Positions 30,113-60,820 of a DNA stretch of 64,000 nt are shown here, piece by piece. The notes below the pieces were generated by a model. The model saw only the letters and a program-made list of their open reading frames with translations, did not search any database and had not been told where the DNA came from. The stretch covers positions 26,897 through 90,896 of the forward strand of contig JAIDCJ010000019.1 of the NCBI GenBank assembly GCA_029055875.1, given 5' to 3'. The position numbers and the translations under genes were made by a program. Numbering within the stretch: position 1 is the first letter of the stretch; each line of letters begins with the position of its first letter. The DNA comes from Clostridia bacterium (GTDB taxonomy: Bacteria; Bacillota; Clostridia; Christensenellales; Borkfalkiaceae).

Positions 30113-31294
30113 CTACCAAGGTATTGAGAGAAGAACGCCCGCAGCAAGCGCAGATCCGATTACCCCCGCTACGTTGGGCCCCATTGCATGCATTAATAAG
30201 TGATTGCTTGGATCGGTTTCCCGCCCGACGTCCTCGGATATGCGCGCCGCCATGGGAACCGCAGAAACGCCTGCCGAACCTATGAGCGGATTGATTTGTC
30301 CTTTCGTTACCTTAGACATAACCTTTGCCGTAAGCAAACCACCAATCGTACCGCAGTAGAATGCAACAACGCCGATACCGATAATTTTCAGCGTATCCCA
30401 GGTAAGGAAAATATCGCCCTTAGCCTTGCAGCCTACCGCAATTCCAAGGAATATTGTGACCGTATTCATAAGTCCATTCTGTGCCTGCGAAGAAAGACGT
30501 TCCACCACGCCCGATTCACGGAACAAATTGCCCAACATGAGCATACCGAGAAGCGGAACTGAACTGGGAAGTATTAATCCCACGATAAGTGTAACCGCAA
30601 TCGGGAAAATAATCTTTTCCACTTTGGAAACCTGACGAAGCGGTTTCATGCGAATTGCACGCTCTTTCTTCGTGGTCAGCAGCCGCATGATGGGCTTTTG
30701 AATGGCAGGGATTAACGCCATGTAAGAGTAAGCCGCAATGGCTATCATAGGCAATAAGTCCCCCGCCAATTTTTGCGTTACGTAGATTGCCGTAGGTCCG
30801 TCCGCGCCGCCGATAATTGCAATGGCTGCCGCTTCGGCTCCGCCAAAACCTAAAAGAATCGCGCCAAACAATGCTATAAATACGCCAAGCTGCGCGCCCG
30901 CTCCAATGAGCATGCTCTTGGGGTTTGCAATGAGCGGCCCGAAATCGGTCATTGCACCGATACCGAGGAAGATAAGCGGCGGGTAAATGACTTTATCTAC
31001 ACCGTAGTAGAGATACCACAAAAGTCCGCGGTCAGTTACGCTGTCGTAAGTATGCGCCGCATCGGTATACGTTCCCCACAACACGCTTTCCGCACCGGGG
31101 AGGTTAATTAAAAACATTCCGAATGCAATGGGAAGCAGGAGCATGGGCTCGTATTTCTTGACGATTGCAAGAAACATGAGAACGAAGGAGATAAGCAGCA
31201 TTACGTAGTTCTGCCACCCGCCTTGCGAAAGCCCCATGGAATCCCAAAGATTGGAGAATATCGACCCAACGTCGATAAGTAAATTACTTTGCAT
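30113..31294 (-). CDS. Na+-translocating decarboxylase beta subunit (OadB/MmdB/GcdB family)
   Basis: Polytopic membrane protein typical of the family. GGAGAG RBS before ATG 31294. Confidence 0.85.
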   Translation of the reverse strand: MQSNLLIDVGSIFSNLWDSMGLSQGGWQNYVMLLISFVLMFLAIVKKYEPMLLLPIAFGMFLINLPGAESVLWGTYTDAAHTYDSVTDRGLLWYLYYGVDKVIYPPLIFLGIGAMTDFGPLIANPKSMLIGAGAQLGVFIALFGAILLGFGGAEAAAIAIIGGADGPTAIYVTQKLAGDLLPMIAIAAYSYMALIPAIQKPIMRLLTTKKERAIRMKPLRQVSKVEKIIFPIAVTLIVGLILPSSVPLLGMLMLGNLFRESGVVERLSSQAQNGLMNTVTIFLGIAVGCKAKGDIFLTWDTLKIIGIGVVAFYCGTIGGLLTAKVMSKVTKGQINPLIGSAGVSAVPMAARISEDVGRETDPSNHLLMHAMGPNVAGVIGSALAAGVLLSIPW

Positions 31295-35121: not shown

Positions 35122-35165
35122 TTTTGGCAGGGGAGACGCGATTCGAACACGCAACCTACGGTTTT
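35122..35165. repeat. att junction: 44 bp copy of the tRNA-Trp 3' part (distal end of the ICE)
   Basis: Identical over 44/44 nt to 60656..60699 (TTTTGGCAGGGGAGACGCGATTCGAACACGCAACCTACGGTTTT). Confidence 0.9.
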
Positions 35166-35415: not shown

Positions 35416-36321
35416 TCAACATTCAGCTGCCAATTTTTTGAAAATTTTTCCATTTCTTGAGAGCGGAGTGACTTGTTCGCAGACGTTTTTGAGCTCGTTC
35501 GAATATAACCTTACATATTTCTTCGTTTCTTCCATGGTTCGATGCCCGAGCCAACGTTGCAGCATCATCGCGTTACAGTTATTTTCCACCATGATTTTGC
35601 CGAACGTATAACGGAAAAGATGCACTCCAGTCTTATTTACACCGCATCGTGCCATATAACGTTTGACTGCCTTGTAAACGGTGGAACGATCATACATCTT
35701 TCCACCATCCGTATTCTGAAACAAAGGACCGTCTTTGATATGACTTTTTACTAAATACATTCGCAGCAGGTTATTCAATATGTCGCTCATAGGAAGAACC
35801 AGGACGTCACGATTCTTTGTAACCCTCAACGTCACAAATCCCCTTTCAAAATCGACATCTTCAGCCCTGACATTCCGAACCGTTTTTGAACGTACGCCGG
35901 TATCGAGTATGAACGCGACGAGGACCGAGTCGGAATCGTCAGGCGAAAATTGCATTGTAAGTTTACAAACATCTTCGTCCGATAACGGCGAACGTACCGT
36001 CATTTCTTCGCGTTGGAACACAAAATTGGGAATGGAATATCCCGGCTTAATTTCTTCCTGATAAAAGTGACAAAGGCGGCGAAGCGCTTTCAGACGATTG
36101 TTTATCGTGCGCGGCATACAATCACGCTCCAGCTGAAAAAATACATAATCTTTTACAATGTTGTCCGTAATCTGCTTGAATCTGCTTATGCCCTCTTCTT
36201 CAAAGAATTTCATAAAATCCTTCGCGGATGCAGCATAGGTCTCCAAAGAATCGGGTGATAAATTTCGCACGATGTTGTCCCGCTGCCATGCCTTAATTGT
36301 TTCCTCAATTTCCTTTTTCAT
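35416..36321 (-). CDS. tyrosine integrase (phage integrase family)
   Basis: SAM-like N-domain and catalytic C-terminus (..HLFRYTFG..WLGHRTMEETKKYVRLY). Adjacent to the att repeat. Confidence 0.85.
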   Translation of the reverse strand: MKKEIEETIKAWQRDNIVRNLSPDSLETYAASAKDFMKFFEEEGISRFKQITDNIVKDYVFFQLERDCMPRTINNRLKALRRLCHFYQEEIKPGYSIPNFVFQREEMTVRSPLSDEDVCKLTMQFSPDDSDSVLVAFILDTGVRSKTVRNVRAEDVDFERGFVTLRVTKNRDVLVLPMSDILNNLLRMYLVKSHIKDGPLFQNTDGGKMYDRSTVYKAVKRYMARCGVNKTGVHLFRYTFGKIMVENNCNAMMLQRWLGHRTMEETKKYVRLYSNELKNVCEQVTPLSRNGKIFKKLAAEC

Positions 36322-36690: not shown

Positions 36691-37104
36691 TTATCCGAAT
36701 ACTATTTCTTTTTGCCATTCATTGTAGGACTGTTTTGTACGAGTAAAAACGCGACTTGCGGTTGAACTGTCAATGTCGAGACTGTCTCCCCACAAAAGTT
36801 GATCGTTGTTCGTTAAAACAATATAAGAGGTCACATCACCCCTTACCGCCTGATAGCATTTATCATGCCCTTCCACAGAAGACAAGGTATATTTTAATTC
36901 CGTTGTAGAAGATTCAGTACCATGCTTTGACATCCACTTTAATGTCTCGCCCTTCACTTCAATATAAATATGGGTTTTCGAAGATTCGACATCACATCTC
37001 CAGCTCCCCTCTATCCCCTTATCTCCGCACGCAACGAGTGAAACGCAAGCGAGTACGACGAGAAGCAAGCTCGTAAATACAGCAATCAGTTTTTTCTTCA
37101 TCAT
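36691..37104 (-). CDS. lipoprotein, unknown function
   Basis: Signal peptide with lipobox LVAC|G. AAGGAG RBS. Confidence 0.6.
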   Translation of the reverse strand: MMKKKLIAVFTSLLLVVLACVSLVACGDKGIEGSWRCDVESSKTHIYIEVKGETLKWMSKHGTESSTTELKYTLSSVEGHDKCYQAVRGDVTSYIVLTNNDQLLWGDSLDIDSSTASRVFTRTKQSYNEWQKEIVFG

Positions 37105-37158: not shown

Positions 37159-37171
37159 GTACAATGCAGAC

Positions 37172-37203
37172 AAAAAGAAATGTCCGTACGGTTTGTACGG
37201 ACA
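37172..37203 (-). terminator. intrinsic terminator after ssb
   Basis: Stem TGTCCGTAC/GTACGGACA, 5 nt loop, then TTTCTTTTT on the - strand. Confidence 0.7.
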
Positions 37204-37206
37204 TTT

Positions 37207-37229
37207 TGTACGTACACTCTGTACGTACA
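37207..37229. promoter_or_regulatory. GTACGTAC tandem pair (c), 2 nt after the ssb stop
   Basis: TGTACGTACA-ctc-TGTACGTACA. Confidence 0.7.
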
Positions 37230-37231
37230 AC

Positions 37232-57286: not shown

Positions 57287-57516
57287 TTACTTCTCCTTTG
57301 ACACTCTAGGCGGGGCAACTACGTTTCCCCGCACCCTTTCCTCGGAAAACACAAAAGAAAGATAGATTTCAGACAAATGTTTCATGCACGGTTTTGCATA
57401 AATATACATTCGGGCCATGCCCTACGCGCGGGTGCGCGGTTTGTATAAATAATCTCTCTGAAATATCTCTCTTGTGCTCTCACAGAGTTAGATATAATTA
57501 TATATGGTGGTAAAAT

Positions 57517-57584
57517 TTCTTTACCAGGTCATTAAGTTTCTTTACTAGTTAAATCTCTTTACCGGTTAAATTCTTTGACTAGTT
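57517..57584. repeat. four iteron-like direct repeats TTCTTTAC(Y)(R)GTT
   Basis: Copies start at 57517, 57538, 57555 and 57571. Each ends in a small palindrome (ACCAGGT / ACTAGT / ACCGGT / ACTAGT). AT-rich GATATAATTATATAT is adjacent at 57491. Confidence 0.6.
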
Positions 57585-57591
57585 AAAATTT

Positions 57592-57951
57592 TTAACCACT
57601 TTCCGCACCATCATTGTTTGGAAGGAGCTGTTGCAAGCCCGCTTTCATCGCATCGATCTTCTCGTAATTGACACGGTAGGCCGTCCGCTGCATCTTCGTT
57701 CCCTGCATCTCGAACGTACGCTTGAGTATGTAGCCTTTTTTGACTAAATTTGCGAGTGCAGAAACGGCCGTTGGCCGAGAGATATTTGCGAAATCTTCCA
57801 GGTACGTCAAAGAGCCCTTCCATTCGCTTTCGCCGTCCTGGGAGAAGCTGTAAACGATTGCAAAAACGATTAGCTCATTGCCTTTGAGGTCTAACACGTT
57901 CAGCATCCAGCCCAAAACGGTGTAAAAGTTGTCGTCGCGTATTCTTGACAT
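57592..57951 (-). CDS. winged-helix DNA-binding protein (HTH_36-like), possible replication initiator or regulator
   Basis: ..LKGNELIVFAIVYSFSQDGE..GSLTYLEDFANISRPTAVSALANLVKKGYI pattern. AAGGAGA RBS before ATG 57951. Confidence 0.5.
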   Translation of the reverse strand: MSRIRDDNFYTVLGWMLNVLDLKGNELIVFAIVYSFSQDGESEWKGSLTYLEDFANISRPTAVSALANLVKKGYILKRTFEMQGTKMQRTAYRVNYEKIDAMKAGLQQLLPNNDGAESG

Positions 57952-57996: not shown

Positions 57997-58224
57997 TTAA
58001 AGTCCAAGTTGCTGTTCTATAAAACGTCGAATTTCGGCCGATGCAGAAGTACCTCGAGCTTGACAGTCTTCCGCAAAGGTTTTCCATAAATCCTCACGGA
58101 TTCGAAGGTTTATTTTCATATCTTTTTTTGTGTTTTCAGTTGCACCAACAGAAGTGGATGCAATAATACTCCGTGCTGTATGGGACGGTGTTTCGCGCCG
58201 TTCAATAATGTTACCAAGAGACAT
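57997..58224 (-). CDS. ribbon-helix-helix protein, ParG-like centromere-binding candidate
   Basis: 75 aa with a flexible N-terminus followed by KINLRIREDLWKTFAEDCQARGTSASAEIRRFI (RHH). Overlaps the parA stop. Confidence 0.55.
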   Translation of the reverse strand: MSLGNIIERRETPSHTARSIIASTSVGATENTKKDMKINLRIREDLWKTFAEDCQARGTSASAEIRRFIEQQLGL

Positions 58225-59006
58225 TAGTCCACCCCCTTGGCCGCGAGAGTAGCGAGTATTTCATCGCAGAGCTTCTCATAGTCCTCGGCCACGCCGGAGT
58301 TCGGTGCATAATCGAACACGCTTTTGCCGTGCGACGGTGCATCTGCGGCCGCAACCGCAATGCGGATCGTGGAGTTAAAAACACGACTCCCGGCTTCTTC
58401 CGCGCGTTTTCTGATAACTTCGATTGCTTCTTTCGTGCTAGTTCTGCGAACATCAGCCATTGTAGCAACGAATCCGAGCACTTCGATGTCCGGCTTGATG
58501 GCCTGCACGTCGCACACACTTTCGAGGAGAAGATCCACACCTTTGAAGGAGTTATATTCCGGTTTGAAAGGAATGAGGACGTAATCGCTTGCTGTCAGTA
58601 CGTTTATGGTGGTGATTGATAAGGAAGGATTGCTGTCGATGATAACGTAATCGTATTTGCCATCGATTTTCTTTATTGCGCGCATCAGATAGCGCTCCCG
58701 GCCAACCTTCATGGCCAGCTTTGTATTTGCCTCTTCCAAACCAATATCGGACGTGATGATCGAGAGATTGTCTTTCAAGACTTCTTCTCGAGCGTGAGCT
58801 CCTTTATCGAGCTCGAGGAAGCAAAGCGCTTGCGGATAACCGACATTGTGCTCTGTAAGGCCGTACGACGTCGTTAAATGCCCCTGCGGGTCAAAGTCGA
58901 TAAGCAGGACCTTTTTCCCGCGCCGCGCGAACCCGTCCGCAAGAGCCATTGCTGTGGTTGTTTTCGCCACGCCGCCTTTTTGGTTTACTAAAGAGATAAC
59001 TTTCAT
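58224..59006 (-). CDS. parA: ParA/ParF-type partition ATPase
   Basis: Deviant Walker A NQKGGVAKTTT. AAGGAG RBS 8 nt before ATG 59006. Confidence 0.9.
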   Translation of the reverse strand: MKVISLVNQKGGVAKTTTAMALADGFARRGKKVLLIDFDPQGHLTTSYGLTEHNVGYPQALCFLELDKGAHAREEVLKDNLSIITSDIGLEEANTKLAMKVGRERYLMRAIKKIDGKYDYVIIDSNPSLSITTINVLTASDYVLIPFKPEYNSFKGVDLLLESVCDVQAIKPDIEVLGFVATMADVRRTSTKEAIEVIRKRAEEAGSRVFNSTIRIAVAAADAPSHGKSVFDYAPNSGVAEDYEKLCDEILATLAAKGVD

Positions 59007-59010
59007 TTTC

Positions 59011-59106
59011 ACACTCCTTTTGTGTGCTCAGTATCGGATATTCCGATTTCTGAGGGGCCAAGAGCCAGACCCGACCTGGCTGTAATCCGTTAGTCTCGGC
59101 ATATCG
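59011..59106 (-). promoter_or_regulatory. 96 nt structured leader, copy 1 (upstream of parA)
   Basis: About 93% identical to 60050..60145. Nested hairpins at 59027-59054 and 59063-59081. Confidence 0.6.
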
Positions 59107-59129
59107 TGTACGTACGTTTTGTACGTACA
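59107..59129. promoter_or_regulatory. GTACGTAC tandem pair (h), upstream of leader copy 1
   Basis: TGTACGTACG-ttt-TGTACGTACA. Confidence 0.7.
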
Positions 59130-59156
59130 AAATGGAGAAGTGATTGCGTTAAGCTG

Positions 59157-60044
59157 CTATTTATAAAGTCTTTTGAGTTGCTTTTCCAAGTCTGATGCAA
59201 GATTAGCCTTGTCGACCGATTCCTTTGCAATTTCTTCTAAAATATCTTGTTTGGCTTGTGTAGCATTCTTTTGGATATTATGAATTGCCGAATTAACTCT
59301 TTCTGATTTGGGGGTATGGTATATGTCGTAATACGTAAATAAGCTCAATGCTTTTTCTACATTGTCTAAAGCGCCGTAAATATTTCCATATTCATCGCTT
59401 AGCTTACTCAAATCATCTTGATACTTGCTTATAAGTTGCTTCGCAACAGCCTCATTATCCGCTTTGATTTTACCGAGGATTTTCACACCGCGCGAACCGA
59501 TGCGCCGCTTCGTATCAAGTTCAGAGCAATAGAACCAACATCCCTGAACTTTCCCAACGAGATACAATGTTTTATCAATACGGTTCCCATAAATCGCCTT
59601 GTGGCGGTTTCCTTCGCTACCATCAAGGTAAATATCGATTTTAGCAACGGAAATATCTGCGGTCTTCAAATCTACGTTCTGATAAAGAGCGTAAAGCTCT
59701 TCTGATGTGTACTTATAGCGTTTGTATCGCTTTCCCGCTTCCCGATTCTCGGTCATCGTTGCTTCGTAAACAATTTCATTGTCGCGGTGCAGGCGATAGG
59801 TACAGTCATTTTCAAGTTCTTTCGTGTAGATCGGTTTGGCATTTTTAATACGTCGTCCGTTTTCATCTCGCTCCCATTCAACCCATATAGCATCGATATA
59901 AACTGTGTAGCCAGCGGGAAGCCCTGCGCTTTTCGGCAGCGCAAACACATAGCGGACGGCAAATGGATCATAGCACCCACCATAGCCGAATTTTGTGTAG
60001 CACTCCAATCGAATAAGATATTTCTTATCAATCAAAAGCTCCAT
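59157..60044 (-). CDS. hypothetical protein (295 aa), beta-rich N-terminus and coiled-coil C-terminus
   Basis: AAGGAG RBS 9 nt before ATG 60044. No motif I recognise. Confidence 0.5.
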   Translation of the reverse strand: MELLIDKKYLIRLECYTKFGYGGCYDPFAVRYVFALPKSAGLPAGYTVYIDAIWVEWERDENGRRIKNAKPIYTKELENDCTYRLHRDNEIVYEATMTENREAGKRYKRYKYTSEELYALYQNVDLKTADISVAKIDIYLDGSEGNRHKAIYGNRIDKTLYLVGKVQGCWFYCSELDTKRRIGSRGVKILGKIKADNEAVAKQLISKYQDDLSKLSDEYGNIYGALDNVEKALSLFTYYDIYHTPKSERVNSAIHNIQKNATQAKQDILEEIAKESVDKANLASDLEKQLKRLYK

Positions 60045-60049
60045 CTCGT

Positions 60050-60145
60050 ACACTCCTTTTGTGTGCTCAGTATCGGATATTCCGACTTCTGAGGGGCCAA
60101 GAGCCCGACTCGAACGGGCTGTAATCCATTAGTCTCGGCATATTG
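60050..60145 (-). promoter_or_regulatory. 96 nt structured leader, copy 2 (upstream of the 295 aa ORF)
   Basis: Duplicate of 59011..59106 with 7 substitutions. Two of them form a compensatory pair in the second hairpin. Confidence 0.6.
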
Positions 60146-60158
60146 TTGTTCGTACGAT

Positions 60159-60548
60159 TTATTTTTTTAGAATGCGAAGCGGGCAAGATGCTGGCCGCGA
60201 AGTTAAAGTATCTTCCGATGCGCTTATAATCTCATCTGTTACTTGGCAGCGAACGTTCGGCGAATCCGAATACTCATCCGTGAGCGGACACGCAACGCAG
60301 CTCGACGGCATTTCATCAGCTTTTACATACAACGTCTTAATGCTTCCGGTCTTTTCCGTTCCTGAAAAGGAAATTCCATGATTACGGCAAAAATTTTCAA
60401 AAAGCATACGGTATCGAGTTTGGGGAGAATGCTTGCCGCTCTCCCAAATACTCACTGTCGCATGAGAAATATTGAGTTCTTGTGCTAATTTCTCTTGTGA
60501 AATTCTCAGCTGTTCTCTTACCTGCACCACTTGCTCGCTAAAGGTCAT
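60159..60548 (-). CDS. XRE-family HTH regulator with a Cys-containing C-terminal domain
   Basis: ISQEKLAQELNISHATVSIWESGK HTH. GGAGAAGGAA RBS before ATG 60548. The longer ORF reads through the palindromes. Confidence 0.8.
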   Translation of the reverse strand: MTFSEQVVQVREQLRISQEKLAQELNISHATVSIWESGKHSPQTRYRMLFENFCRNHGISFSGTEKTGSIKTLYVKADEMPSSCVACPLTDEYSDSPNVRCQVTDEIISASEDTLTSRPASCPLRILKK

Positions 60549-60564
60549 TTCCTTCTCCTCATCA

Positions 60565-60600
60565 TGTACGTACGTTTTGTACGTACACTTCGTACGTACA
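60565..60600. promoter_or_regulatory. GTACGTAC tandem triple (i), directly upstream of xre
   Basis: TGTACGTACG-ttt-TGTACGTACA-ctt-CGTACGTACA, with a 13 bp register. Confidence 0.75.
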
Positions 60601-60604
60601 AAAA

Positions 60605-60640
60605 AGCAAAACAAAAAGGCCCCATCTTTTCAGATGGGAC
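60605..60640 (-). terminator. intrinsic terminator just inside the ICE end
   Basis: 10 bp stem at 60617-60626 / 60631-60640 with a 4 nt loop. TTTTTGTTTTGCTTTTTT follows on the - strand. Confidence 0.65.
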
Positions 60641-60655
60641 CTTTTTGTCCTTAAA

Positions 60656-60699
60656 TTTTGGCAGGGGAGACGCGATTCGAACACGCAACCTACGGTTTT
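60656..60699. repeat. att junction overlapping the 3' part of the intact tRNA-Trp
   Basis: Identical over 44/44 nt to 35122..35165. Confidence 0.9.
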
Positions 60700-60733
60700 G
60701 GAGACCGCTACTCTACCGTTGAGCCACTCCCCT
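60659..60733 (-). tRNA. trnW: tRNA-Trp (anticodon CCA), 75 nt with encoded CCA end
   Basis: Manual cloverleaf:
- Acceptor stem AGGGGAG/CTCCCCT.
- D arm GCTC..GAGT.
- Anticodon stem GCGGT/ACCGT with loop CTCCAAA.
- T loop TTCGAAT. Confidence 0.9.
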
Positions 60734-60820
60734 ATGCGCAAAAATAATTATATATGATTCTTAAAATTTCGTCAAGACATTTTTAGGGAAATGCAATAAT
60801 TTTTTTGCGTATTAAAAATC

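Follow-up and report, generated by a model that had tools for sequence, protein, structure and literature searches.

Genes and features of the locus

The window, by which we mean the whole stretch of 64,000 nucleotides analysed here, contains a 25.5-kb ICE that is inserted in tRNA-Trp and starts at 60655. The tRNA-Trp gene (60659-60733) was the sole tRNA found in the window by ARAGORN and Rfam, and 44 bp of it are carried at the ends of the element. The element encodes a MobL relaxase, a coupling protein and a VirB4-like ATPase, as well as a polyvalent protein that contains the NrS-1 polymerase helix-bundle domain. The genes and features around the two leader copies are listed in Table 1. ORF295 gave no match in Pfam, NCBIfam or PHROG. 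The 75-aa RHH candidate next to parA is likely the partner of ParA and a DNA binder. A ParA search of genome contigs returned best relatives that were 38% identical and had neither the leader nor the palindromes.

Table 1. Coordinates of the genes, palindromes and leader parts in the window.
Feature	Position	Strand	Remark
75-aa RHH candidate	57997..58224	-	Weak matches: RHH_1 E = 0.0064; Arc-like E = 0.0032
parA	58224..59006	-	Small Walker-type ParA, 260 aa
Copy 1 P3, CACAC-AAAAGGA-GUGUG	59010..59026	-	SD 59014-59019 in and at the edge of the loop
Copy 1 P2 hairpin	59027..59054	-	5 bp + 6 bp, small internal loop
Copy 1 P1 3' strand UCUUGGC + discriminator-like C	59056..59063	-	Contiguous with P1b 3' strand
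Copy 1 P1b T-arm-like hairpin, GCCAG-GUCGGGU-CUGGC	59064..59080	-	
Copy 1 connector CUAACGGAUUACA, 13 nt	59081..59093	-	Replaces D arm, anticodon arm and variable region of tRNA
Copy 1 P1 5' strand GCCGAGA (acceptor-like 1-7)	59094..59100	-	Minimum-free-energy fold, covariation
GTACGTAC-N5-GTACGTAC pair	59108..59128		7 nt upstream of copy 1 minihelix
ORF295	59157..60044	-	Function unassigned; between the leader copies
Copy 2 P3 SD hairpin	60050..60065	-	4 bp
Copy 2 P2 hairpin	60066..60093	-	G.U where copy 1 has A-U
Copy 2 minihelix, GCCGAGA-CUAAUGGAUUACA-GCCCG-UUCGAGU-CGGGC-UCUUGGC-C	60095..60139	-	R2 covariance model, 69.1 bits
Single degenerate 8-mer GTACGAAC (on (-) strand)	60148..60155		Upstream of copy 2
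XRE-type HTH gene	60159..60554	-	First gene of the element

Structure of the duplicated leader

Alignment of 59011-59107 with 60050-60146 showed a leader present in two copies of 97 nt, identical at 90 of 97 bases (93%). This agrees with the initial annotation, which had described a duplicated leader with a common RBS at its end; both copies indeed terminate in CACACAAAAGGAGTGT. The ATG codons of parA (59004-59006) and ORF295 (60042-60044) lie 7-8 nt past the SD. The palindromes were also as first described, with an intact pair ahead of copy 1 and one degenerate 8-mer ahead of copy 2.

On the (-) strand the leader consists, in order, of P1, a 13-nt connector, P1b, P2 and P3, and all leaders fold alike. 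P1 is a 7-bp stem (GCCGAGA/TCTTGGC) which encloses the P1b hairpin (5 bp, loop of 7 nt), leaving a 13-nt bulge. P2 is a hairpin of 7-12 bp, and its sequence differs by lineage. Two of these parts had been recognized before, namely P2 as CUCAG-AA-AUCGGA-AUA-UCCGAU-A-CUGAG at 59027-59054 and P1b ("hairpin 2") as AGCCAG-loop-CUGGCU at 59063-59081, and both were recovered in the minimum-free-energy folds of the two window copies (z-scores of -3.05 and -2.45). The 7-bp outer stem, the third hairpin with the SD and the tRNA-like architecture had been overlooked.

The substitutions between the copies fall in alignment columns 3, 19, 31, 33, 37, 41 and 61, and the (-)-strand fold is unharmed by all seven. 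Columns 3 and 19 are unpaired. The roles proposed earlier for the other five held: columns 31 and 41 are a compensatory exchange of A-U for C-G, columns 33 and 37 belong to the 7-nt loop, and at column 61 an A-U pair gives way to G.U, on the (-) strand alone. The A-U pair in P1b of copy 1 is C-G in copy 2 and in every other homologue. All seven differences are confined to the 5' 61 columns, while the 3'-most 36 nt are identical between the copies. Since copy 2 carries alleles of the L101 lineage (see below) in its 5' half but matches copy 1 exactly in its 3' half, this mosaic pattern points to recombination rather than to a simple recent duplication.

Homologous leaders in related elements

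Four additional leader variants were found upstream of parA in related elements, at loci L090 (ParA 95% identical), L101 (91%), L092-096 (89%) and L102 (78%). A fifth (L097:934-1024) precedes an unrelated 338-aa gene, one with no relationship to ORF295. The same locus contains an array of five palindrome-plus-minihelix units (L097:330-1022), the minihelix being P1 with P1b. These five minihelices have diverged in sequence and pairing is perfect in all of them; the stand-alone ones have no SD downstream. The leader is thus portable between genes and not specific to parA. A role in coordinating parA with ORF295, as suggested in the initial annotation, is not borne out, for the relatives have the module before parA alone, L097 has it before another gene, its 5' domain is found in stand-alone arrays, and the homologues of ORF295 elsewhere follow short plain spacers without the leader. 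A specific association of the leader with ORF295 was rejected for the last reason and for the unrelated gene in L097.

In the relatives, the XRE gene is followed directly by the palindrome pair, the leader and parA. The window appears to have caught a gene acquisition, in which ORF295 arrived together with a module copy of its own and separated parA from the XRE gene. In L092 the module immediately follows the stop codon of the XRE gene and in L101 that of the polyvalent protein gene, and it comes after a DUF4313 gene in L090; no terminator was found between the upstream gene and the module at these three loci. Judging from this gene order, the leader is intercistronic in the relatives, and it is probably transcribed within a longer RNA, as part of the mRNA. 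In the L094 variant, a 5-nt deletion removes the 5' strand of the T-stem. The minihelix is consequently not indispensable, unless this deletion is an assembly error.

Covariation and strand preference

Our comparison covered 11 distinct P1/P1b copies, a small and phylogenetically narrow set (six element lineages, with five of the copies from one contig), and in these the minihelix was paired in 131 of 132 cells (99.2%). Changes on both sides were seen in 6 of the 12 pairs, so that the covariation for which the initial annotation had looked to homologues is present in the stems. None of 500 shuffles reached the observed values, and pairing fell to 26-52% when the 3' partner was slid along. The stems covary, but the nucleotides of the loop and of the connector are conserved. 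P2 is represented by at least five unrelated sequences, each of which forms a 7-12-bp hairpin at the same site. In P3, CACAC/GUGUG is replaced by ACAU/AUGU in L102, with the SD still in the loop.

The sense fold was more stable than the antisense fold in seven of seven leaders (in L101, -39.9 versus -31.6 kcal/mol), with sense-strand z-scores from -1.7 to -4.9 across the leaders. The minihelix contains six wobble pairs, and P2 has one in most leaders; all of them would be C.A mismatches on the opposite strand. The initial annotation had argued for a functional RNA structure rather than a double-stranded DNA site, and the covariation of independent homologues, the constant hairpin of P2 and the preference for the sense strand all support this. 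The duplicated stretch is a conserved RNA module of conjugative elements of gut Clostridia.

Database and model searches

The leader matches no described RNA family. Rfam 15 at the gathering threshold gave no relevant match in the whole window (riboswitches, leaders, ctRNAs, C4, YrlA and others), and nothing relevant was found in 58980-60200 at E <= 10. Neither the 50,697 phage records nor the 72,556 plasmid records returned a match to the leader in blastn. In IMG/VR, the 20-mer TCGGAATATCCGATACTGAG, the 19-mer GCCGAGACTAAYGGATTAC and the 18-mer GCACACAAAAGGAGTGTG were all absent in exact or degenerate scans, and a degenerate minihelix pattern hit 14 GC-rich stretches on unrelated viral contigs, which look like chance. 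A 19-mer scan of JGI metagenomes gave two matches, both of them chance. The covariance models R1 and R2, run on the window and 40 loci, detected no further copies in the window; weak R1 matches at 30651 and 27684 were dismissed as noise.

Resemblance to the top half of a tRNA

P1 and P1b stack as 7 + 5 = 12 bp with contiguous 3' strands and a 7-nt loop in all 11 aligned copies. On this modelled fold, they can be taken to imitate the acceptor/T-arm half of a tRNA. The pair G1-C72 and a G-C as the last T-stem pair (= G53-C61) are present in 11 of 11 copies. The loop has the consensus xUCRRGU, with U55 in 10 copies and C56 and R57 in all 11, and a U stands at -1 in eight. Real tRNAs need the U54/A58 pair of the T-loop. 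Among the aligned copies U54 was found in just six and A58 in just four, and the pair itself in only four, five others having G54/G58.

The loop of copy 2 (UUCGAGU) is a canonical T-loop sequence. Written as DNA, canonical T-loops are TTCGAGT in copy 2 and L101, TTCAAGT in unit 2 of L097, TTCGAAT in L102:549-590 and TTCAACT in L105, a possible distant relative. These five copies have the core G-TTCRANY-C; copy 1 and four others have GTCGGGT in its place, and the flanking G52/C62 are not conserved. RNase Z needs a discriminator that is not followed by CCA. No CCA follows it in any of the 11 aligned copies, which is therefore compatible with processing by RNase Z. The discriminator and next bases are C-CCU in the window copies and A-CAC, A-AAA, C-ACU, C-AUU, U-GAG, C-CCG or A-CAA in the others. 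The only A-CCA end belongs to the possible distant copy of L105, which ends TACCGGC-A-CCA.

The likeness to tRNA was spotted post hoc, and a relaxed descriptor gave 12 matches in 1.23 Mb of unrelated DNA, both strands counted (about 10 per Mb). ARAGORN in standard mode with a relaxed -ps threshold called no tRNA at the window leaders, and on the related loci its standard mode called only the real tRNA-Trp of L092. Calls that overlapped both window leaders were obtained with -mt and relaxed -ps; we regarded them as spurious, since unrelated coding sequence was called too. The Rfam tRNA model (RF00005) had no match in 58980-60200, even at E <= 10.

The GGA core of the connector is kept in most copies. 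A possible tertiary pair of the D-loop/T-loop kind, between the GG of the connector and U55/C56 of the loop, was noticed as one observation; in unit 4 of L097, a CG in the connector stands alongside a loop with G55.

Putative function of the leader

We give an even chance to the explanation that the leader, portable between genes, would be a tRNA-like module at which RNase P and RNase Z cut and which serves to process and stabilise transcripts. Among the options named by the initial annotation (a cis-regulatory leader, an antisense target, a protein-binding or a processing element), we favour the processing element, though without the gene-coordinating role attached to it. Host tRNA-processing enzymes would recognise the minihelix inside a longer transcript. 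RNase P would cut just 5' of G1, and the upstream RNA would then end a few nt past a GUACGUAC hairpin. RNase Z would cut after the discriminator, and the downstream message would start 1-9 nt before P2. Placed at the new start, the stable P2 would protect the message from 5' exonuclease, and P3 would present or partly mask the SD and so set the translation of the next gene. A weak promoter may also overlap the palindromes, for example with TACAAT/TACAAA at the 3' edge of the second 8-mer. If RNA were started at or near G1 by such a promoter, nothing would be left for RNase P to cut.

Among the closest known systems are the t-elements of plant mitochondria. Their ends coincide with mapped 5' and 3' ends of mRNAs, for which RNase Z and RNase P were held responsible (Forner et al. 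2007, PMC1920247), and the T-arm motif of t-elements is GGTTCRANYCC (PMC1920247). Like t-elements, the leader has a non-canonical tRNA-like fold with an acceptor-like stem and a T-arm beside protein-coding genes, and the GTTCRANYC core is shared by copy 2, L101, L097 unit 2, L102:549-590 and L105. However, the leader is bacterial, lies on a conjugative element and has no sequence relationship to them. Its connector has a fixed length of 13 nt and stands where t-elements have D and anticodon arms in degenerate form. A protective hairpin and one with the SD follow downstream, five of its 11 aligned copies have G54/G58, and its cleavage is predicted only.

In mascRNA/MALAT1 and in mitochondrial tRNA punctuation, a tRNA or its mimic in a long transcript is the signal at which RNase P and RNase Z cut. 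There, in eukaryotic nuclei and organelles, the signal is a real tRNA or a mimic of the full cloverleaf, whereas ours would be a mimic of the top half only, in a bacterial mobile element. Bacterial RNase P also processes non-tRNA substrates, such as the precursor of the C4 antisense RNA of phages P1/P7, intercistronic sites in operons and some riboswitches. These are a precedent for tRNA-like folds in RNAs of mobile elements and operons, but they have no similarity to the leader in sequence or Rfam model, and none of them has a T-loop on a stack of 7 + 5 bp. The ermC and aprE leaders are 5' stabiliser stem-loops of Firmicute mRNAs. As in these, a stable hairpin near the 5' end stands just upstream of the SD, which fits the role proposed for P2 (and for P1 too, if the RNA starts at G1), but ermC and aprE have single hairpins on primary transcripts and no tRNA-like domain.

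A wider proposal, which we put forward tentatively as somewhat doubtful, is that conjugative elements of gut Clostridia use mimics of the tRNA top half as punctuation. The mimics would be cut by RNase P and RNase Z and spread by recombination, flanking hairpins would protect the ends, and arrays of the L097:330-1022 type would release small RNAs. This would be a bacterial counterpart, on a mobile element, of mitochondrial tRNA punctuation and plant t-elements, and tRNA-punctuated processing, known from organelles and eukaryotic nuclei, would then reach bacterial conjugative elements. Should RNase P and RNase Z indeed cut the leader, it would amount to a compact and transferable "cut, stabilise, translate" cassette for expressing newly acquired genes. 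It would also be a new RNA family for annotation, now invisible to Rfam and tRNA finders, and a natural part for the design of polycistronic expression in Firmicutes. Even without cleavage, it is a well-supported new structured RNA motif of gut-microbiome ICEs.

The conservation of the loop and connector beside covarying stems is also what would be expected of a recognition surface. The leader might thus regulate by binding instead of cleavage, with the xUCRRGU loop and the connector GGA docking a protein, encoded by the element or by the host, or an antisense or small RNA, and a change in access to P3 and the SD controlling translation of parA and ORF295. The SD is embedded in a conserved hairpin, and par operons are typically under tight autoregulation. 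Nevertheless, we consider regulation by binding unlikely. The element yielded no candidate for an RNA-binding protein, neither a complementary sequence nor a promoter was found on the opposite strand, and no SD follows the stand-alone minihelices of L097. Moreover, the stable and independent P2 separates the minihelix from the SD, and a signal from P1b to P3 is hard to picture.

Still less likely, in our view, is that the leader is simply where a primary transcript begins. The RNA would be started at about G1 by a promoter over the GTACGTAC pair, itself the operator of the element's repressor, and the base-paired 5' end together with P2 would only stabilise it against RNase J or RNase Y, with no tRNA-processing enzyme involved. 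Stem-loops at the 5' end do stabilise Firmicute mRNAs. In most copies a palindrome pair lies 5-11 nt upstream of G1, and -10-like sequences (TACAAT/TACAAA) overlap its 3' edge, with TGACT upstream in two L097 units as judged by eye. In the window, a promoter of the XRE gene could fit only into the triple 8-mer region at 60560-60607, because the element starts at 60655. However, neither within the two window copies nor immediately ahead of them did a consensus scan detect a sigma-70-type promoter, and most copies lack a -35 element. The leader is present without an intact palindrome pair in L101 and in window copy 2. The T-loop-like conservation, the 7 + 5 bp geometry and the ACCA end of L105 would also be left unexplained.

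Conservation of hairpins alone cannot separate RNA from single-stranded DNA, and the element is conjugative, as its MobL relaxase, coupling protein, VirB4-like ATPase and NrS-1-type polyvalent protein indicate. It is very unlikely, however, that the structure was selected as a conjugation signal on the transferred strand, whether for priming, as a single-strand origin or as an ssDNA promoter. The module is joined to an SD hairpin and a start codon at conserved spacing, no promoter-like -35/-10 hexamer pair lies within the stems, and the T-loop-like features have no known role in DNA. A promoter of the Frpo type has to be on the template strand, but here the coding strand folds better.

We hold it to be highly improbable that the leader is non-functional debris, either decaying pieces of a tRNA gene or a repeat spread by recombination and carried with inserted genes: the element does integrate in tRNA-Trp, the window copies are mosaic as is typical of recombination and L094 tolerates a deletion, but remnants of an att site hold the 3' part of the tRNA only, whereas the leader also has the 5' acceptor strand, which covaries with the 3' strand, the five diverged copies on one contig remain perfectly paired, and the leader is unrelated in sequence to the tRNA-Trp of the att site. 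The last point, which holds for the 44-bp core, also removed a remnant of the element's own att site from consideration. A leader peptide was rejected as well, since the ATG that overlaps G1 in the seven gene-proximal leaders has no upstream SD, its frame is not conserved, and in unit 5 of L097 it stops after four codons. An intrinsic terminator or attenuator was discarded, as no U tract follows any hairpin.

Palindrome pairs

The GTACGTAC motif had 20 matches in the window against 0.28 expected, and 17 of these 20 occur as intergenic pairs or a triplet across the element. The corresponding pair pattern was found on 55 contigs in IMG/VR, all but one of them single-site, and none of them belongs to the loci searched with R1 and R2. 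For these pairs, though not for the leader, the closest match is with operators of the Omega/ParG-type RHH proteins and type Ib centromeres. As in type Ib systems, a small ParA is followed here by the 75-aa RHH candidate, and a short repeated motif lies ahead of parA as well as at the starts of several other genes across the element. Unlike the Omega/ParG-type operators, the motif is an 8-bp palindrome that occurs in pairs with a variable spacing of 4-6 nt and is also able to form an RNA hairpin; its role as an operator is putative. The 8-mers of the relatives are GTCCGTAC/GTACGGAC, mainly in inverted pairs.

Structure of the duplicated leader

Our repeat search of the window identified a 97-nt direct repeat whose two copies, one before parA (copy 1) and the other before ORF295 (copy 2), are 93% identical, confirming the duplicated leader of the initial annotation. 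On the (-) strand both copies fold into the two hairpins described there, and two further features were found in each. An outer 7-bp stem, GCCGAGA/UCUUGGC (P1), surrounds the former hairpin 2 (P1b), with 13 nt bulged out on the 5′ side, and a small additional hairpin (P3) carries the SD in its loop. The remaining hairpin is termed P2.

All seven substitutions in the ungapped alignment are structure-neutral. Columns 31 and 41 represent a true compensatory change (A-U versus C-G) and column 61 yields G.U on the (-) strand only, both as annotated earlier; columns 33 and 37 fall within the 7-nt loop, and neither column 3 nor column 19 is paired. In copy 1 the A-U pair is the derived state, because all other homologues have C-G. 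A fresh tandem duplication was rejected. Copy 2 matches the allele of a related locus, L101, at six of its seven distinguishing bases, and its 3′ 36 nt are the same as in copy 1 and unlike every relative; the copies are therefore a recombination mosaic.

Genomic context

The repeat sits within a 25.5-kb integrative conjugative element (ICE), bounded by a perfect 44-bp direct repeat of the 3′ part of tRNA-Trp. The element encodes a tyrosine integrase, a VirB4-like ATPase, a coupling protein, and a MobL relaxase, and all genes in the leader region lie on the (-) strand.

Features of the window around the leaders and the ICE
Feature	Position	Strand
tRNA-Trp promoter	60747-60775	
tRNA-Trp	60659-60733	(-)
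44-bp direct repeat	35122-35165, 60656-60699	
ICE	35166-60655	
Terminator hairpin	60608-60651	
GTACGTAC triplet	60566	
XRE-type HTH gene	60159-60554	(-)
Leader, copy 2	60050-60146	(-)
ORF295	59157-60044	(-)
Leader, copy 1	59011-59107	(-)
parA	58224-59006	(-)
75-aa ribbon-helix-helix (RHH) candidate	57997-58224	(-)
Winged-helix replication-initiator-like gene	57592-57951	(-)
Direct repeats, TTAAATCTCTTTACC-like	57494-57597	
ArdC/MuF/primase-type polyvalent protein, 1389 aa		(-)
GTACGTAC pairs	36458, 36642, 37208, 42307, 50590, 57971, 59108	
Tyrosine integrase	35416-36321	

A strong terminator hairpin opens the ICE directly after the rebuilt tRNA-Trp, whose promoter matches the consensus at 11 of 12 positions. 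The gap from this terminator to the XRE SD is only ~45 nt and is occupied by three GTACGTAC sites; a canonical promoter for the first ICE operon was looked for and not found. Just downstream of the winged-helix gene there are four direct repeats with a period of ~17 nt, which look like replication-origin iterons.

About 50 homologues of ORF295 were found, all uncharacterised, and the family has no match in Pfam, NCBIfam or PHROG. Elsewhere these homologues are found downstream of the polyvalent protein in a group of small ORFs, after short plain spacers. In two of them (P0008 and P0009) the protein is joined to the helix-bundle domain of NrS-1-type primase-polymerases, a hint that ORF295 may act in DNA replication or priming.

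Distribution of the leader

No match to the leader was found in phage records, plasmid records, IMG/VR or JGI metagenomes, and ParA has no close relative among the GTDB species representatives. A large protein collection contained ParA relatives at 60-95% identity, whose contigs were examined. The leader was present upstream of parA in L090/L091 (ParA 95%), L101 (91%), L092-L096 (89%), and L102 (78%), and absent from this position in L097/L098 (74%), L106 (73%), L103/L104 (72%), and most of L162-L167 (66%). In L092 the XRE stop codon is followed by the palindrome pair, the leader, and parA, in that order. The window is arranged likewise, but with an insertion of leader plus ORF295; the earlier suggestion that the leader coordinates parA and ORF295 was not supported. 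The XRE gene of L092 adjoins the same tRNA-Trp.

A search with a covariance model of the leader gave four additional matches in one contig (L097). A 690-nt non-coding gap of this contig (330-1022) holds five P1/P1b copies. The inverted repeat GTACGGAC-N3-4-GTCCGTAC stands ahead of four of these copies, and another hairpin ahead of the fifth. The last unit is the only one with P2, P3, and a gene behind it, and this gene encodes a 338-aa protein unrelated to ORF295. The spacers between the units are 40-170 nt long and rich in hairpins.

Under relaxed search criteria, L102 yielded a second minihelix (P1 plus P1b; 549-590; loop TTCGAAT) and the related locus L105 a possible distant copy (2340-2383), with a 13-nt connector, loop TTCAACT, and 3′ end TACCGGC-A-CCA; both loops are canonical T-loops. 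The latter lies in a different, ~170-nt parA leader, behind GTCCGTAC sites, and its 5′ acceptor strand is paired at five of seven positions, which alone is not significant. In L094 (1430-1528), an L092-type leader has a 5-nt deletion and the 5′ strand of its T-stem-like hairpin is gone; either the minihelix can be lost or the assembly is faulty.

Conservation of the fold and the strand on which it acts

Each homologue folds independently into the same four helices. P2 is a hairpin of 7-12 bp formed by unrelated sequences: CUCAGAAAUCGGA.../...UCCGAUACUGAG in the window, CUCAUUGUCGGA... in L090 and L101, CUUCUUAUCUGA-GGU-UCAGGUAAGAAG in L092, CGUUCGGAAACG-GAAA-CGUUUCCGAGCG in L102, and CUCAUCA-GCC-UGAUGAG in L097. 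In L102, P3 is ACAU/AUGU instead of CACAC/GUGUG, with the SD retained. In an alignment of 11 distinct P1/P1b copies, 99.2% of cells were paired and 6 of 12 pairs had both-sided changes, values reached by none of 500 shuffles, with covariation scores inflated by kinship among the sequences. Pairing fell to 26-52% when the partners were slid.

In each of the seven leaders the sense strand gave a more stable fold than the antisense strand (for example, -39.0 vs -33.7, -39.3 vs -32.8, -39.9 vs -31.6, and -41.9 vs -33.9 kcal/mol), with sense z-scores down to -4.9. P1/P1b contain six wobble pairs, and P2 has a wobble in copy 2, L090, L101, L092, and L102, all of which would be C.A mismatches on the opposite strand. 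The module is also joined to the SD hairpin and start codon. Together these observations point to a structure acting in the mRNA, not to a double-stranded site or a template-strand hairpin. The original proposal of an RNA structure rather than a DNA site is supported and extended.

Resemblance to the top half of tRNA

The geometry of P1 plus P1b is that of a tRNA top half, with a 7-bp acceptor-like stem and a 5-bp stem with a 7-nt loop, whose contiguous 3′ strands give a 12-bp stack followed by one discriminator-like base. In tRNA-style numbering, G1-C72 and the loop-closing G-C pair (as G53-C61) are found in 11/11 copies, and U occupies -1 in 8/11. The loop reads xUCRRGU; U55 is present in 10/11 copies and C56 and R57 in all, and textbook T-loops occur in copy 2 and L101 (TTCGAGT) and in L097 unit 2 (TTCAAGT). 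The sequence features agree in part with tRNA. However, the U54/A58 pair is present in only 4/11 copies, no tRNA model or finder tried gave a score, the resemblance was recognised post hoc, and a strict descriptor that matched both leaders in the window (2 matches) had 3 matches in 1.09 Mb of unrelated loci (both strands). We therefore call the minihelix a tRNA top-half mimic, not a tRNA.

Proposed function

The leader is a new structured RNA family, absent from Rfam, and its nearest functional analogues would be tRNA-like processing signals. For RNase P and RNase Z, an acceptor/T-arm minihelix is a minimal substrate, and RNase Z acts on precursors that lack CCA. The closest documented case is that of plant mitochondrial t-elements, tRNA-like folds with a GTTCRANYC T-arm core, whose ends coincide with mRNA ends that were ascribed to RNase P and RNase Z (PMC1920247). 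In the ICE relatives the module lies between cistrons. We propose that it punctuates polycistronic RNA, with RNase P and RNase Z as the candidate nucleases. After a cut at G1, the upstream RNA would end only a few nt past the GUACGUAC hairpin, and a cut after the discriminator would start the downstream mRNA 1-9 nt ahead of P2, a stable 5′ hairpin, with ribosome access governed by P3. This would explain why the parts come in this order, why P2 evolves freely in sequence, why CCA is missing, why the module can be carried from gene to gene, and why stand-alone arrays exist. Were the minihelices processed, the L097 spacers could be freed as small RNAs.

Among the alternatives, ordered by weight, a regulatory leader working by binding comes first. 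The second is a plain 5′ stabiliser of a primary transcript, with a promoter overlapping the palindromes. A ssDNA signal for conjugation is third, set against the sense-strand preference of the fold. Non-functional debris of a tRNA or repeat ranks last, perfect pairing being kept in all five diverged L097 copies.

Palindromic 8-mers

The 8-bp palindrome GTACGTAC has 20 matches in the window vs 0.28 expected. Of these, 17 are grouped as seven pairs and one triplet, with 4-6 nt between sites, in intergenic positions across the whole ICE (36.4-60.6 kb). The pairs frequently lie just before an RBS, often 8-20 nt ahead of the SD, and two precede terminator-like T-runs. Relatives carry GTCCGTAC/GTACGGAC in place of GTACGTAC; the palindrome is invariant within one element and co-varies between elements. 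The punctuation proposal leaves this unexplained; an operator or centromere for the RHH or XRE protein of the element fits better. The pairs may be such putative protein sites, RNA hairpins, or both.

At 37170-37230, a GTACGTAC pair runs directly into a second hairpin of other 8-mers (UGUCCGUAC-AAAC-CGUACGGACA) and a T-run, and downstream of these there is a strong promoter-like TTGACA-N17-TATAAT ahead of the gene at 36691-37104.
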